From a virus (lineage: Duplodnaviria > Caudoviricetes), in IMG/VR virus record IMGVR_UViG_3300042923_000379, positions 1 to 53,273 of that record: a stretch of 53,273 nt of DNA. One strand, 5' to 3'. The translations under genes and the position numbers were made by a program. Within the stretch, counting starts at the first letter, position 1. Every line of letters begins with the position of its first letter. The notes below the pieces were generated by a model. It did not search any database. It saw only the letters and a list, made by a program, of their open reading frames with translations, and was not told the origin of the DNA. Positions 28,868 through 33,778 of the stretch are shown here, one piece after another.

Positions 28868-29014
28868 AGCATACTTTAAATAAAGTAAAAGCCTATTTTA
28901 AAGTATATTTTAAAGTTAATGCCAATTATCTTTTATTTACGCTTTAAACCTTTAATTTTCTTTAATTTAAAAACTTTTTGTGATATATTATTTTTAGCGT
29001 ATACTATAAAGTAG
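28868..29014. promoter_or_regulatory. lysis/lysogeny control region
   Basis: repeated (TA)CTTTAAA/TTTAAAG(TA) boxes; plus-strand TTTAAT-17-TATATT (28961-28989) with TGn upstream of the repressor. Confidence 0.55.
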
Positions 29015-29024
29015 GAGGATCATT

Positions 29025-29456
29025 ATGTCTATAATAGGTGATAATTTAAGAAGAATAAGAAAAGAAAAGAATATTTCTCAGATGGATCTATATAGAATTA
29101 CTAAAGTGAGTAATGTATATATTAATAAAATCGAAAAAGGTGTTTACGATAACCCTTCGTTTGATGTAATTGAAAGACTTGCATTTGGATTAAATTGTAC
29201 TATAGATGATTTAACTAGAAATACAGAAGAAGATAATGAAAAAAATATATATGAAATGATAGAAGAAATACTAAAGAAAAATAATATGCATAACGAAGAA
29301 ACTCAAGTAGCAGCTCTTTTACTAGCGAAATTACGTTCAAATAATTTAATAAATGAAGATTTTGAAATGACACCTAGTCTCGTGAAGCTACTTGAAGAAG
29401 CTATTCGTTTAGATGCAAAAATAGAGAAAAATATCAAGAACGCAGAAGATGAATAA
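29025..29456 (+). CDS. CI-like XRE repressor
   Basis: IGDNLRRIRKEKNISQMDL..YINKIEKG..NPSFDVIERLAFGL; AGGAGG RBS. Confidence 0.88.
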   Translation: MSIIGDNLRRIRKEKNISQMDLYRITKVSNVYINKIEKGVYDNPSFDVIERLAFGLNCTIDDLTRNTEEDNEKNIYEMIEEILKKNNMHNEETQVAALLLAKLRSNNLINEDFEMTPSLVKLLEEAIRLDAKIEKNIKNAEDE

Positions 29457-29708
29457 TTTTACTTATATCAATAGAATTAGTAGACAATAGAGAATTAATA
29501 AGAATAACAGCTTGGACTATATTTTTAGATTTATCAGTTTTTTTCATAAAAACAACCCCTTTGTTATTTCATTAACATAATTATACTACGAATTTTTATG
29601 CATGCCGTGAATAATTCCGACAAATTAACACACGCTTAAAACTTCTTGTAATTATTTTCTAGTATTATTTATTTTAATAATAATGTATAATTCCTCTGAT
29701 TATTATTT

Positions 29709-29715
29709 TGTCGAA
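29709..29715 (+). promoter_or_regulatory. Spo0A box (0A box)
   Basis: perfect TGTCGAA between TATAAT (29686-29691) and the RBS of the HTH-recombinase operon. Confidence 0.55.
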
Positions 29716-29731
29716 ATACGGAGGAATAAAA

Positions 29732-30040
29732 TTGGAATACATAAGAAAAGGATTAAGATTAACGCAAGAAGAACTAGCAAAAAAAATGGGAGTAAGTCAA
29801 TCTAAAGTAAGTAGATGGGAAAGGGGGATTAATTTAGAACATATGTCCATAGGAGAAATGATAAAGATATCAGAATTAGTCGGCCAATGCCCTATATCTG
29901 TAATGTGCATGTTTGTAAATAGACTTAAATATTGTAACGCCATGATGGGACAAATAAACTTTAGTGAATGCTATCTTATGAAAAAGTATCATAAGGACTT
30001 TATGGAGGAAATAAATGAAAGTAGCGATATATTCTCGTAA
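29732..30040 (+). CDS. XRE HTH protein overlapping the recombinase start
   Basis: GGAGG at 29720-29724 then TTG; LTQEELAKKMGVSQSKVSRWERG. Confidence 0.85.
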   Translation: MEYIRKGLRLTQEELAKKMGVSQSKVSRWERGINLEHMSIGEMIKISELVGQCPISVMCMFVNRLKYCNAMMGQINFSECYLMKKYHKDFMEEINESSDIFS

Positions 30041-31619
30041 AAGTAAATTTACTGGTAAAGGTGAATCTATAGATAATCAAATCCAAATTTGCAAGGATCA
30101 TATCAAATATAAATATCCTGGGGAAAATATTGAGTTTTTAGAATATGAAGATGAGGGGTTTTCTGGAAAGAATATAGATAGACCATCCTTTTCTAAAATG
30201 ATGAAAGATGCTAAAGAAAAGAAGTTTGAAGTATTAATATGTTATAGACTTGATAGAATAGCAAGAAATGTTGGTAGGTTCTCCGATACTGTAGAAGTAT
30301 TGATGGAAAAGAACATAACTTTTATATCTGTAACTGAAGATGTTAACACTAATACTATAATGGGTAGAGCTGTAATGAATATATCGGCTGTATTCGCCCA
30401 AATGGAGCGTGAGACTATTGCTGAACGTGTTAGAGATAATATGCTTGAACTTGCTAAAACAGGTCGTTGGCTAGGGGGACAAACTCCCCTTGGCTTTAAA
30501 AGTGAGCAAATAGTTTATCTTGATGAAAATTTTAAAGAAAGAACTATGTATAAATTATCTCCGCTAGAAGAAGAACTTAAGCTTGTTAAACTGATTTATG
30601 ATAAATACATTGAATTAAAATCCTTAAGACAAGTTACAACTTATCTTTTAATTAATAACTTTAAAACTAAGAATAATTCTAACTGGAATACAAAGGCTGT
30701 ATTAGGCGTTCTAACAAGTCCAACTTACGTAAAAGCCAATGATAAGGTTAAAGATTATTTAACCTCTCTTGGCGTTGTTTGTGTAGGTAAAATGGATAAT
30801 AAACACGCTATATTAACTTATAATAAGAAAAAAGGTACTGAGTTTAGAAATATGTCAGAATGGATTGCGGCCGTAGCTAAACATGAAGGGATAATTGATG
30901 CTGATATATGGTTATCTATTCAAGATACATTAAAGGATAATAAATCAAAAGCACCTAGACTTGGTAAAACTAATAAGGCGATATTAACAGGTTTATTAAG
31001 ATGCGGTGATTGTGGTTCTAGTATGGGCATTGTGCATGGTCCATTAAGAAAAGATGGTACTAAACTATATTATTATTCTTGTACCCTTAAAATGAACTCT
31101 AAAGGCATTAGATGTAGTTCTAAAAATGTTAATTCAAACCTTATAGAAAAAGCTGTTATAGATAAAATAAAAACATATGCAAAAGATGATTCCACGTTAT
31201 TAAAAGACTTGGATAAAAATTTAGTTAAAAATACTAATAATAAAGTTGAAATAAATAATCTCGAAAAATCTATAGATGATAAGAAAGCAGCTATTAAAAA
31301 TTTAGTTAATCAACTTTCTCAAAATAGTAATTCTATAGCATCTAAATATATCATAGAAGAAATCGAGAAGTTAGAAAAAGATATTATTGAAGCTACTAAA
31401 CAACTTGAAGAAATAAACTTTAAAAATAAAGAAATGGAAAACCATAAAGCAAATATAGATCTATTAAAAGAATATATAAAGAAATTCTATGAAGAAATAG
31501 ATAATTTAGATAATGAGGATAAAAAGAAAATACTAAATACCTTAATAGATAGGATTGATTGGTATTCTGAAGAAAATGAGATTAACATAACTTTGTTTGG
31601 AGACACTAAAAAAAACTAA
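30015..31619 (+). CDS. large serine recombinase (integrase)
   Basis: VAIYSRKS catalytic motif, YEDEGFSGKNIDRP, YRLDRIAR, recombinase domain, LRCGDCG..YYSC..C zinc ribbon, coiled coil. Confidence 0.96.
   Translation: MKVAIYSRKSKFTGKGESIDNQIQICKDHIKYKYPGENIEFLEYEDEGFSGKNIDRPSFSKMMKDAKEKKFEVLICYRLDRIARNVGRFSDTVEVLMEKNITFISVTEDVNTNTIMGRAVMNISAVFAQMERETIAERVRDNMLELAKTGRWLGGQTPLGFKSEQIVYLDENFKERTMYKLSPLEEELKLVKLIYDKYIELKSLRQVTTYLLINNFKTKNNSNWNTKAVLGVLTSPTYVKANDKVKDYLTSLGVVCVGKMDNKHAILTYNKKKGTEFRNMSEWIAAVAKHEGIIDADIWLSIQDTLKDNKSKAPRLGKTNKAILTGLLRCGDCGSSMGIVHGPLRKDGTKLYYYSCTLKMNSKGIRCSSKNVNSNLIEKAVIDKIKTYAKDDSTLLKDLDKNLVKNTNNKVEINNLEKSIDDKKAAIKNLVNQLSQNSNSIASKYIIEEIEKLEKDIIEATKQLEEINFKNKEMENHKANIDLLKEYIKKFYEEIDNLDNEDKKKILNTLIDRIDWYSEENEINITLFGDTKKN
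31610..31616 (+). other. candidate -1 frameshift heptamer A_AAA_AAC
   Basis: directly before the recombinase TAA; the -1 frame opens at 31610 and runs to 32080. Confidence 0.6.
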
Positions 31620-32080
31620 ATGATACATTGCAGTTTGTTGATACAAGCATCTGCTCTAGTAGACAAAACACAATTATTAAAGTTGAAAAAGCAAATACAA
31701 TTAATAAAGAAACTTTTGGGGAATATCTTAGATATTATAGGATTGAAAAGAATTTATCTCAACAAGATTTATCCGAGCTTACTGGAATATCAAGGTCATT
31801 TATTGATAGCATAGAAAAAGACAATCACATACTTTCTAAAGATACTTTGTTAAAACTTAACAAGGTTTTTGATATATATAAATTCCCTTTAGATGATTAC
31901 TATAAATTTATATTACAAGATACTTCCGAATATTTTAAGAGTTGGAGAAGTAAAAATAAATTATCTTTAAGAGCTGCGGCCAACATATTAAATGTTCCTC
32001 ATTCTACTCTACGTTATTGGGAAAAAGGAAATATAATAAATAAAGAAACTTATTTAAATATAAAAAGCTTGTTAAAATAG
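31616..32080 (+). CDS. tandem XRE HTH domains; probably a -1-frame extension of the recombinase
   Basis: FGEYLRYYRIEKNLSQQDLSELTGISRS and FKSWRSKNKLSLRAAANILNVPHSTLRYWEKG; no RBS before TTG 31628. Confidence 0.75.
   Translation, partial: LNDTLQFVDTSICSSRQNTIIKVEKANTINKETFGEYLRYYRIEKNLSQQDLSELTGISRSFIDSIEKDNHILSKDTLLKLNKVFDIYKFPLDDYYKFILQDTSEYFKSWRSKNKLSLRAAANILNVPHSTLRYWEKGNIINKETYLNIKSLLK
31627..31674. other. candidate attP site
   Basis: 48-bp imperfect inverted repeat ATTGcagTTTGT..AGCA-TC-TGCT..ACAAAacaCAAT around a central dinucleotide (31650-31651). Confidence 0.55.
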
Positions 32081-32103
32081 AATACTCTACTAACAAGCTT
32101 TTT
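32062..32103. terminator. bidirectional terminator between convergent genes
   Basis: AAAAAGCTTGTTA...TAACAAGCTTTTT. Confidence 0.75.
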
Positions 32104-32106
32104 GCT

Positions 32107-32580
32107 TTAGAATCCTGTTACTTCTTTAATCTTATAAGACGTTGCGTTTTTATCAAATATCATTGCCTTAAAAGACCATACTCCATCTTTTTCAAGGTTG
32201 TTGATATTATCCATAGTACTGCCTGTTTGATTTCCATCTTTATCATACAAATTAATTTCAATCTGTAGATAAGACCTATCCTTGCCAGAATTATTTTTAA
32301 TTTTACCTACTACGTATCTAGTGTATTGATCTCCTTCTATTTTTTCTTCTAGGATTTCATATTTCTTTGTCTGTTCCTCAATTTGCTTTGCTGCTTTATC
32401 CTCTTTAGGTGTTTTATCGCCGAATATAGCACCTAGTATCACAAGGAATAATATTATACCTATTCCAATCCCTAGAACCTTTAAACACCCTCCTGCGTTT
32501 CTTTGTCCACATTTAGGACATACCTTTGCACTTTTAGAAATAGTTTCTCCGCATGCTTTACATTGTTTTAATTTTGCCAT
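32107..32580 (-). CDS. zinc-ribbon + TM + FxLYD-domain membrane protein (lysogenic conversion / possible superinfection exclusion)
   Basis: CKACG..CPKCG, TM helix, VVGKIKNNSG..INLYDKDG. Confidence 0.85.
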   Translation of the reverse strand: MAKLKQCKACGETISKSAKVCPKCGQRNAGGCLKVLGIGIGIILFLVILGAIFGDKTPKEDKAAKQIEEQTKKYEILEEKIEGDQYTRYVVGKIKNNSGKDRSYLQIEINLYDKDGNQTGSTMDNINNLEKDGVWSFKAMIFDKNATSYKIKEVTGF

Positions 32581-32682
32581 TAATTATCTCCCCTTATTAT
32601 CTTAAAGTTATTATTCAATTTTAAGTATATTATGAGAAAATAAGACAAGCAATATATTCGACAAATTATCCTAAAATAAAAC

Positions 32683-32710
32683 AAGCCTAGAGAAATTAAT
32701 CCCTAGGCTT
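32683..32710 (-). terminator. hairpin terminator after the endolysin
   Basis: AAGCCTAG..CTAGGCTT followed by GTTTTATTTT on the minus strand. Confidence 0.65.
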
Positions 32711-32714
32711 ATAA

Positions 32715-33518
32715 TTATTTCTTAAATAGTTCTGAGAATGTATTAGTTCCCACTATTTTATCAGCTGTTAATCCTCTATCTTTTTGGAATTGTTCAACTG
32801 CTGCTTCAGTTAATTTACCAAAATCATTGTCTATAGCACCTTTATAATATCCTAAAGCTTTTAATCTTTCTTGTATTATTCCAGTTATATTACCATAGGC
32901 ACCTCTGCTTACAGTTATTCCATGGGTAGCTTTAATGGATAAATCTCCAAAGAAGCTATCTTCATCTAATCCTCTGTTAAATTGAATGTTAAGCTCATGT
33001 TGGAATCTTTTTATTATATCTCCATCGATATAGTATTCCCATGTAGCTTTTTGAGTTGGAACTTGAACTTCTTGTTTTACTGGAGTACCTGAACAAAGAG
33101 AACCTATATAGTTATAAAATGATCCTGGGCAGTCTGTAGACATAAAGTCTTTATGCCCATATTCTCTTATATCTCCATAAATGCTTCTTAAGTATGATCT
33201 TAATTCTTTAGCACTATTTAATTGAGCATCTGTAGGCTGTTCTACGGTGAATTTACCTTCAAAGCATATTCCAATACTATCTGAATTTTGACCTAGCGTA
33301 TGAGCTCCTATTGCTGTTAAAACTCTGCCTTGATATATTGAACCATCTTTTTTTACAAAGAAATGATAACCAATACCGCTCCATCCTCTATTAATATGTG
33401 ATCTATGAATATCTTCAACCGTACAATTATCCCAATCCGCATGATGGTATACAATCTTACTTGTCCATGTTCTATTGCTTAAATCTCCGAATTTTAAATT
33501 CTTATCTATTATATGCAT
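32715..33518 (-). CDS. endolysin: Amidase_2 + peptidoglycan-binding domain(s)
   Basis: IVYHH..RGWSGIGYHF..GAHT..SIGICFEG..GHKD..TDCPG; IDNDFGKLTEAAVEQFQKDRGLTADKIVG. Confidence 0.95.
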   Translation of the reverse strand: MHIIDKNLKFGDLSNRTWTSKIVYHHADWDNCTVEDIHRSHINRGWSGIGYHFFVKKDGSIYQGRVLTAIGAHTLGQNSDSIGICFEGKFTVEQPTDAQLNSAKELRSYLRSIYGDIREYGHKDFMSTDCPGSFYNYIGSLCSGTPVKQEVQVPTQKATWEYYIDGDIIKRFQHELNIQFNRGLDEDSFFGDLSIKATHGITVSRGAYGNITGIIQERLKALGYYKGAIDNDFGKLTEAAVEQFQKDRGLTADKIVGTNTFSELFKK

Positions 33519-33526
33519 ATTATCAC

Positions 33527-33778
33527 CTATTCATCTTTCTTAAGTTGTTTCATTAGTTGATTGCTATATACTGCTGCTCCTGTTACTAGTATCCCTTGAA
33601 TAGTTGCTTGTACAGTAAATCCACCCAATGCCACTGATCCTAAAATCCCAAGTGGAAGTAATATCAAAGGTATATTCTTATCTGCAATTCTCTCAGTTCC
33701 CTTTAAAATCATTCCCAATACATATAATGCAGGTATTAAAACTAATGCGTTTTCAGTGATGTATTTTACAAAATCCAT
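33527..33778 (-). CDS. holin
   Basis: LIPALYVLGMILK..IPLILL..IQGILVTGAAVYSNQLMKQ; immediately upstream of the lysin. Confidence 0.9.
   Translation of the reverse strand: MDFVKYITENALVLIPALYVLGMILKGTERIADKNIPLILLPLGILGSVALGGFTVQATIQGILVTGAAVYSNQLMKQLKKDE

Follow-up and report, generated by a model that had tools for sequence, protein, structure and literature searches.

A candidate −1 recoding site that may join a phage serine integrase to a tandem helix-turn-helix domain encoded across attP

Introduction

Immunity in mycobacteriophage BPs and its relatives is described as integration-dependent, with the phage attachment site (attP) located inside the repressor gene, gene 33 (PMC4557955). Accounts of the SSV-type ‘suicidal’ tyrosine integrases of archaea place an att site inside the integrase gene itself (PMC8371274). 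Here we examine a locus in a complete IMG/VR virus record of 53,273 base pairs (IMGVR_UViG_3300042923_000379; Duplodnaviria, Caudoviricetes), a stretch of DNA that is hereafter, in its whole length, called the window. At this locus a large serine recombinase gene ends in a run of eight adenines, and an open reading frame (ORF) in the −1 frame continues from the run through a putative attP into two helix-turn-helix (HTH) domains of the XRE type.

Frameshifting by −1 on A-rich heptamers is known from insA-insB′ of the insertion sequence (IS) IS1, at A6C, from orfA-orfB of the IS3 family, at A6G, and from dnaX of Escherichia coli. Programmed transcriptional slippage on runs of A9 or T9 occurs in IS elements, in Thermus dnaX and in Shigella mxiE. 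In the intP/intX system of myxophage Mx8, the 3′ part of the integrase gene contains attP, and integration alters the C-terminus of the integrase. A literature search confined to papers outside subscription-only access found no published account of frameshifting, transcriptional slippage or XRE-HTH fusion in serine integrases.

On the strength of sequence comparisons, we consider it rather probable that the window encodes both a short integrase of 534 amino acids (aa) and an integrase-HTH fusion of ~688 aa, the latter made by −1 recoding at the A-run and from non-integrated DNA only.

Results

An integrase gene and a −1-frame ORF overlap within an A-run

The features of the locus on which the analysis bears are as follows.

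30015-31619, plus strand: large serine recombinase (integrase), 534 aa (ORF list, Pfam, PHROG)
31599-31602, plus strand: GGAG, a Shine-Dalgarno-like tetramer 7 nucleotides (nt) 5′ of the heptamer, in the Gly codon of a conserved (W/F)G motif
31608-31616, plus strand: putative recoding site, A8 (31608-31615) followed by C, with the heptamer A_AAA_AAC (31610-31616) in the zero-frame register
31610-32080, plus strand: −1-frame ORF of 156 codons and a stop (32078-32080), comprising a linker of ~30 aa and then two HTH modules of the XRE/Cro-C1 type
31628-31673: putative attP, inside the linker-coding part of the −1 ORF, with P arm 31628-31648, center ATCT 31649-31652 and P′ arm 31653-31673
31706-32077, plus strand: tandem HTH domain proper, −1 ORF residues ~33-156 (Pfam, AlphaFold2)

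The recombinase is a serine integrase, with a resolvase-type catalytic domain, Recombinase and zinc-ribbon domains and an adjoining putative att site. Its matches to Pfam Resolvase (expectation (E) value 6e-34; 117.7 bits against a cut-off of 23.3), Recombinase (2.6e-18; 66.6 bits) and Zn_ribbon_recom (2.5e-14; 53.8 bits) all lie above cut-off, and it matches PHROG 95, integrase, at 3.5e-115. The catalytic residues Y6, R8 and S10 are invariant across 38 aligned homologues, and the ATG start is preceded by a GGAGG-type Shine-Dalgarno sequence that matches at 5 of 6 positions.

In the zero frame the protein ends ...LFGDTKKN, encoded by the codons ACT AAA AAA AAC TAA. The overlap between the two frames is bounded by a −1-frame TAA at 31607-31609 and the zero-frame TAA at 31617-31619, and the A-run fills nearly all of it. 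An initial annotation, made from the sequence alone, had drawn attention to this ending, to the heptamer, to the GGAG tetramer and to the upstream −1 stop, and each of these is present in the sequence. The heptamer A_AAA_AAC is the IS1 motif, and the GGAG 7 nt upstream of it is a candidate Shine-Dalgarno-like stimulator.

The initial annotation had further described the −1 frame as open to 32080 and as encoding two XRE HTH domains that lack a ribosome-binding site. Pfam HTH_3 indeed matches two stretches of this ORF (E = 1.6e-17; 63.7 bits against a cut-off of 23), one of them spanning residues 40-89, with the second HTH at residues ~117-144. A scan for start codons and Shine-Dalgarno sequences bears out the lack of a credible independent start, as the ORF contains no ATG and offers, ahead of the HTH domain, a single candidate among ATG, GTG and TTG, namely TTG 31628, where the Shine-Dalgarno match reaches 2/6 at best. 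A promoter and terminator scan found no plus-strand promoter between the integrase and HTH sequences, and its counts did not exceed those of shuffled sequences.

An AlphaFold2 model based on 22 aligned relatives contains nine helices, and its predicted local distance difference test scores are 52-56 over residues 1-30 and 87-98 over residues 31-156. The model thus has a flexible, disordered linker of ~30 residues at its start and a compact nine-helix domain after it; a linker of the kind modeled can tolerate the sequence constraints of an att site. The HTH domain keeps its invariant residues. When the HTH model was submitted to Foldseek, only generic XRE-type repressors were returned (HipB, SinR, C-proteins and P22 c2, all with E > 0.001), and no link to known directionality factors emerged from this comparison. 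A search for related loci with the single HTH protein found no relative, and the use of an alignment of HTH relatives as the query gave 8 loci. The alignment-based protein search was dominated by multi-HTH repeat proteins, and only its single-stretch rows were used. When longer homologous proteins were sought with the HTH ORF as the query, none scored, a weak negative given the word filter of that search, and the fused forms described below came to light by other routes.

The top promoter-like match of the region, TTGAGA-17-TATAAT (11/12), lies on the minus strand at 31762-31734 within the HTH ORF and is aimed at attP. In a lysogen, transcription from it would leave the prophage end and enter host DNA. 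The region as a whole has no more promoter-like sites than shuffled sequences do.

Relatives conserve the run, the adjacent stop and an open −1 frame

We retrieved 160 homologous integrase loci, and 155 loci, with the window counted among them, could be analyzed. Among the best 120 homologues the integrase C-terminus reads KKK in 60 and KKN in 8. A run of at least seven adenines is present at the 3′ end of the integrase gene in 61 of the 155 loci (A9 in 42, A8 in 8 and A7 in 11), and the zero-frame stop falls 0-1 nt past the run in 30 of the 50 loci with at least A8. Remoter relatives that lack a long run often carry A_AAA_AAG in register (for example L009, L052, L072, L092, L103, L108 and L123). 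At the place equivalent to the GGAG of the window, relatives have TGGGGA or GGAGG.

The run length in the window, for which the initial annotation had asked for read support, does not appear to be an assembly slip. The exact ending A8-C-TAA also occurs in two isolate genomes (L089 and L118), and a second assembly, a Logan contig of 3256 nt with a depth of 19, matches the A8 length with 0 differences; this contig probably derives from the source sample and so is not independent, and contigs conceal minor run-length variants.

Frame openness was assessed in loci with at least A8, a zero-frame stop no more than 9 nt away and 100 nt or more of sequence downstream, a set of 29 loci that reduces to 25 lineages when integrases are grouped at 80% identity over their last 200 aa. 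Past the run, 23 of the 25 lineages keep the −1 frame open for 20 codons or more and 4 keep the +1 frame open that far; at positions drawn at random from these gene-dense loci, the probability of such openness is 0.31. Of the two frames, −1 is the longer in 22 lineages and the shorter in 3 (sign test, p = 1.6e-4).

In three relatives with the free-form arrangement (L008, L028 and L050) the integrase gene adjoins a homologous tandem HTH sequence in the −1 frame, open from the run. Start codons in the linkers of these three have no Shine-Dalgarno sequence, with candidates matching at most 4/6 positions versus 5-6/6 at the integrase starts. For integrated pairs, in which the two halves are separated, we compared the codon position of the common att core in the integrase-side frames with that in the HTH frame. 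The phase is −1 in pairs G002, G005, G009 and G006, and for G005 it follows from the direct-repeat core common to attL and attR, the left and right prophage junctions. Altogether, 8 of the 9 resolved cases that have both an A-run and a stop (four free forms, including the window, and four integrated pairs) show the −1 phase. The expectation that homologues would keep the A-run and an open −1 frame is therefore borne out, and where the partner was found this frame leads to a homologous tandem HTH.

A G+C-rich inverted repeat of 6-8 base pairs encloses the A9 run and stop in many relatives (L094, L110, L096, L105, L085, L028, L080, L100 and L102). Its left arm is the Shine-Dalgarno-like GGGGA or GGAGG of the WG codons, and the window has no such repeat. 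This repeat cannot serve as a classical downstream frameshift stimulator.

Some lineages encode the fusion in a single frame

Several relatives carry integrase and HTH sequences fused in frame: P0027 (689 aa), P0076/L010 (695 aa), P0098 (692 aa), P0152 (700 aa), L073 (696 aa), L159 and L076, the last of which is cut by a contig end. In addition, L006 and L170, the two ends of one record, have an in-frame A9 in the zero frame of the integrase, which is in phase with the HTH sequence across the core. The natural fusions, at 689-700 aa, agree with the size of ~688 aa that had been predicted for the product of the window.

A quick maximum-likelihood tree of 44 integrases places the window with L084 (Clostridium magnum) and L083, with a support of 95. 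Fused and −1 forms are interleaved on this tree, whose starred branches require the −1 state to have changed at least 4 times and the fused state 5 times. As judged from the tree, the two layouts have interconverted repeatedly, which is expected if both encode the same functional unit.

An overlap confined to the A-run, a conserved stop combined with an open −1 frame, a lack of initiation signals and functional fusions elsewhere are, at the level of sequence, the usual signature of a recoding site. From this signature we infer that recoding occurs.

The putative attP lies inside the linker

A 48-base-pair inverted repeat just past the run had been proposed as attP. The position of the site is upheld by the prophage junction of C. 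magnum, and the identification stands because the site is homologous to that junction; the repeat, in contrast, is weak evidence when taken alone. Its arms are complementary at 12 of 21 positions, and repeats this good occur at 0.5% of window positions. A general repeat search of the window (seed 6) did not list it, and by itself it is no more than chance would provide.

In C. magnum the integrase gene ends in A9-TAA, followed by a 21-base stretch that is identical to window positions 31628-31648 at 19 of 21 bases. Similarity ends at the center, and beyond the center of this attR lies host DNA, namely a gene for a GIDA-family flavin adenine dinucleotide (FAD) protein. The tandem-HTH ORF of C. 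magnum is found 36 kb upstream of the integrase gene on the same strand, where attL consists of the other part of the same host gene, a match to the P′ arm and then the HTH ORF. The core AGCTTC is common to both junctions. Because the C. magnum junction breaks at the equivalent of 31650/51, attP is placed inside the linker, and the predicted crossover is TC at 31650-31651. The boundaries of prophages in the nearest relatives fall at the equivalent position, as the initial annotation had anticipated for attL and attR.

Other lysogens have the same organization. In pairs G005, G008 and G009 the integrase and HTH sequences lie at opposite prophage ends, ~40-44 kb apart on the same strand, with the HTH sequence upstream of the integrase gene; in G006 the two ends are on different contigs. 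L010, which is fused, and L011, which is integrated, resemble each other as far as a palindrome within the ORF; past it they differ, and L011 reaches a stop a few codons later. In lysogens a stop in the host sequence comes just before the HTH ORF, whose frame is not that of the host gene.

Several related integrase lineages target the host GIDA-family FAD gene (PF01134). They do so in both orientations, and the two sites that they use lie near the peptide motifs FPGHxHA and VGHTEA. Examples include L048 (2924-3736), L171 (1080-1370), L170, L167, L084 and L110, downstream of the integrase gene. In L048 a fragment of this gene lies between two different prophage ends.

A model for state-dependent isoforms

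In the model that we favor, most ribosomes would halt at the TAA at 31617 and produce the 534-aa integrase. A minority of products would shift to the −1 frame within the run and continue through the linker into the tandem XRE-type HTH domain, giving the ~688-aa fusion. The shift could come from tRNA slippage on A_AAA_AAC, either in tandem or in the P site, from the insertion of one A by RNA polymerase, or from both. The sequence does not separate ribosomal −1 slippage from RNA polymerase slippage; about nine adenines suffice for the latter, a length that 42 relatives have exactly, and the window has eight. The linker would be encoded across attP, with the crossover near 31650/51, and integration would carry the HTH half to the far end of the prophage. 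As the linker crosses attP, the long isoform could be encoded by non-integrated DNA only, that is, by excised, circular or infecting DNA, and the short catalytic integrase would be made in both states.

Some constraints on function can be drawn from the lineages with in-frame fusions. There the fusion is the only integrase of a newly infecting genome and must therefore be competent for integration, and the truncated form left in the prophage must suffice for excision. These two requirements favor a role of the HTH domain in accessory DNA binding or in regulation, exerted before integration or after excision. Our best guess is that the domain contributes such an activity, for example by binding next to attP or to an operator in the lysogeny operon, and a role as a classical excision factor is less likely. 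We put forward more tentatively, as a possibility of somewhat less than even standing, that recoding of this kind extends across a clade of serine integrases from clostridial phages and that the fusion is a sensor of the excised state that steers the direction of recombination or the lysis-lysogeny decision.

Contrary observations and alternative explanations

A number of observations weigh against −1 recoding in the window or narrow the rule. The RNA fold downstream of the heptamer is no more stable than those of shuffled sequences (z = −0.5), no RNA run containing the window stretch was listed, and A9 and A_AAA_AAG are stronger slip sites than A8-C. In L078 and L144 the long open frame is the +1 frame. 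Pair G008 (L105/L173) has its HTH sequence in the zero frame behind a TAG, or in the +1 frame under another reading of the core, and stays exceptional under every att core proposed. L135 (7630-8133), a free form without an A-run, carries its tandem HTH in the zero frame directly after the TGA of the integrase gene, and an in-frame ATG follows that stop by 6 nt, a layout that suggests translational coupling or readthrough instead of A-run recoding. The −1 phase rule is thus not universal, as G008 and L135 deviate from it. Finally, the attP of the window and the change that integration would bring about are placed by homology to relatives.

The layout of L135, which has a homologous HTH after its in-frame ATG, also lends weight to the idea that the HTH ORF of the window is a separate protein of ~150 aa, translated by re-initiation without a Shine-Dalgarno sequence at TTG 31628, which would span attP and be lost on integration but would never be fused. 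That TTG lies only 8 nt past the integrase stop, and termination-reinitiation there is conceivable; L028 has an ATG ~10 nt past its stop, and gene calls include many stand-alone proteins of 140-170 aa. However, most of these calls are attL ends of prophages at which the gene caller used the first start past the junction, and the conserved P arm simply begins with the triplet TTG 31628. Re-initiation does not require that −1 openness begin exactly at the run, as it does in 23 of 25 lineages, and in G005 the −1 frame is open and in phase yet has no ATG, GTG or TTG from the run to the att core. The in-frame fusions, present in at least seven lineages, point to the fused protein as a working form, and we regard separate translation as unlikely. 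A switch at the DNA level, in which replication slippage from A8 to A9 would create a subpopulation of genomes with a true in-frame integrase-HTH gene by phase variation, seems quite improbable to us. It draws on the repeated interconversion of fused and −1 forms on the tree and on run-length variants among close relatives: A8 is seen in L102 and L144, whose sisters have A9, and protein tails imply A8-like runs in P0004 and P0016 and an A11-like run in P0013. Heritable change in run length could accordingly do part of the switching, a further point that tells against recoding as the whole account. No observed variant of the A9-plus-stop type has a frame-fusing length, however, and the one assembly check gave a single run length, though contigs would hide minor variants. 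The conservation of a zero-frame stop directly after the run also speaks against such a switch, and from it we argue that the short form is the default product.

Two further explanations deny the −1 ORF a role as part of the integrase. The gene could be broken, an ancestral in-frame fusion having lost one A by mutation or assembly error to leave the HTH sequence as a dead remnant. In-frame fusions do exist, and one added A would restore a single ORF, but independent assemblies and isolate genomes show the same split layout, with a homologous HTH ORF that is intact and free of stops, the immediate zero-frame stop is conserved, the second assembly also has A8, and the HTH sequence retains its invariant residues and a confident fold model. 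Decay of this kind is very improbable. Alternatively, the startless ORF might supply a replacement end for an interrupted host gene, with the host protein being rebuilt on integration. Relatives do integrate within the GIDA-family FAD gene, and phage-borne gene ends are a known way of preserving a target gene. This candidate was rejected, since at the five attL junctions examined (L048, L170, L167, L171 and C. magnum) the HTH ORF and the host gene are read in different frames, and a stop closes the host ORF 0-12 codons past the junction. The host protein, moreover, has no HTH domain, and the in-frame integrase-HTH fusions would be left unexplained, which makes the proposal barely credible. Recoding at the A-run remains the explanation that we favor.

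Phage context of the locus

The window is the genome of a temperate Clostridium-type phage in its non-integrated arrangement, and the operon that ends with the integrase gene is its lysogeny operon. The main features outside the recoding locus are listed here.

~52 kb down to 32.7 kb, minus strand: terminase, structural and lysis genes
29025-31619, plus strand: block formed by the XRE repressor-like gene, the small XRE gene and the integrase gene
29025-29456, plus strand: XRE repressor-like gene (ORF list, Pfam HTH_3)
29708-30040, plus strand: small XRE gene (ORF list, Pfam HTH_3), overlapping the integrase start by 26 nt
below 28.4 kb, minus strand: early genes

The gene order is that of a non-integrated phage, and because the lysis module adjoins the integrase gene, the attP of the window must be intact. 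The small XRE gene at 29708-30040 may serve the module as a regulator or directionality factor, and many homologous loci have a similar small HTH ORF that abuts the integrase start (for example L007, L023, L028, L040, L057, L080 and L083). A palindrome at 32051-32084, which takes in the stop codon of the HTH ORF and the interval up to a convergent minus-strand gene for a zinc-ribbon membrane protein (32107-32580), is probably a bidirectional terminator.

A megablast search of positions 29000-33600 against the phage collection gave no match. A second soil-metagenome run (X2) yielded three identical 151-nt contigs of the phage, at window positions 31000-31074, 31971-32121 and 32203-32353, with a depth of 2-3. 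The phage is therefore present in more than one sample, and the X2 contigs leave the A-run uncovered.

Discussion

Serine integrases are models of directional site-specific recombination and are widely used as tools for genome engineering. If the proposed isoforms are made, they would tie the activity of the integrase, or the regulation of phage genes, in a new way to the physical state of the phage DNA, and would form a layer of control for serine integrases apart from the known stand-alone directionality factors. A phage integrase would then join the few bacterial genes in which −1 recoding is conserved, and att sites would be seen to sit in translated, disordered linkers. There are also consequences for annotation, in that automated procedures would truncate such integrases and call the HTH ORFs at the far prophage end orphan regulators. 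For this integrase family the arrangement offers a rule for locating attP, as the first inverted repeat after the KKK stop.

The locus shares with IS1, the IS3 family and dnaX an A-rich heptamer in a minimal frame overlap and the prospect of short and long isoforms of a protein that acts in DNA transactions. In IS elements, however, the HTH lies upstream and it is the catalytic part that needs the shift, an order that is reversed here. No downstream structure was found in the present case, and the overlap regions of the IS1, IS3 and dnaX genes contain no att site. The relatives resemble systems that use slippage on A9 or T9 in conserving exactly A9, about the shortest efficient slip run, on which an inserted A amounts to a −1 shift; the window differs from these in having only A8 and then C.

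With respect to the position of attP, the integrase of Mx8 is of the tyrosine type, with no added DNA-binding domain and no recoding. The integrase of BPs is likewise a tyrosine recombinase. As the SSV-type elements are described, integration splits and inactivates the integrase gene, whereas here the catalytic integrase would stay whole and only a C-terminal accessory domain would be detached; the recombinase family and the domain of life differ as well (PMC8371274). In the account of BPs cited here, the gene concerned encodes a repressor that loses a 33-residue degradation tag, and recoding is not part of the description, whereas in our case a serine integrase would lose a whole tandem HTH domain and, in most lineages, the long form would need a −1 shift at the A-run. 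Even so, by analogy, the integration-dependent immunity of BPs is the nearest known logic: as that system is described, attP lies within a coding sequence, the free phage and the prophage encode different C-termini, and the isoform reports the state of integration, as we propose for the integrase of the window (PMC4557955).

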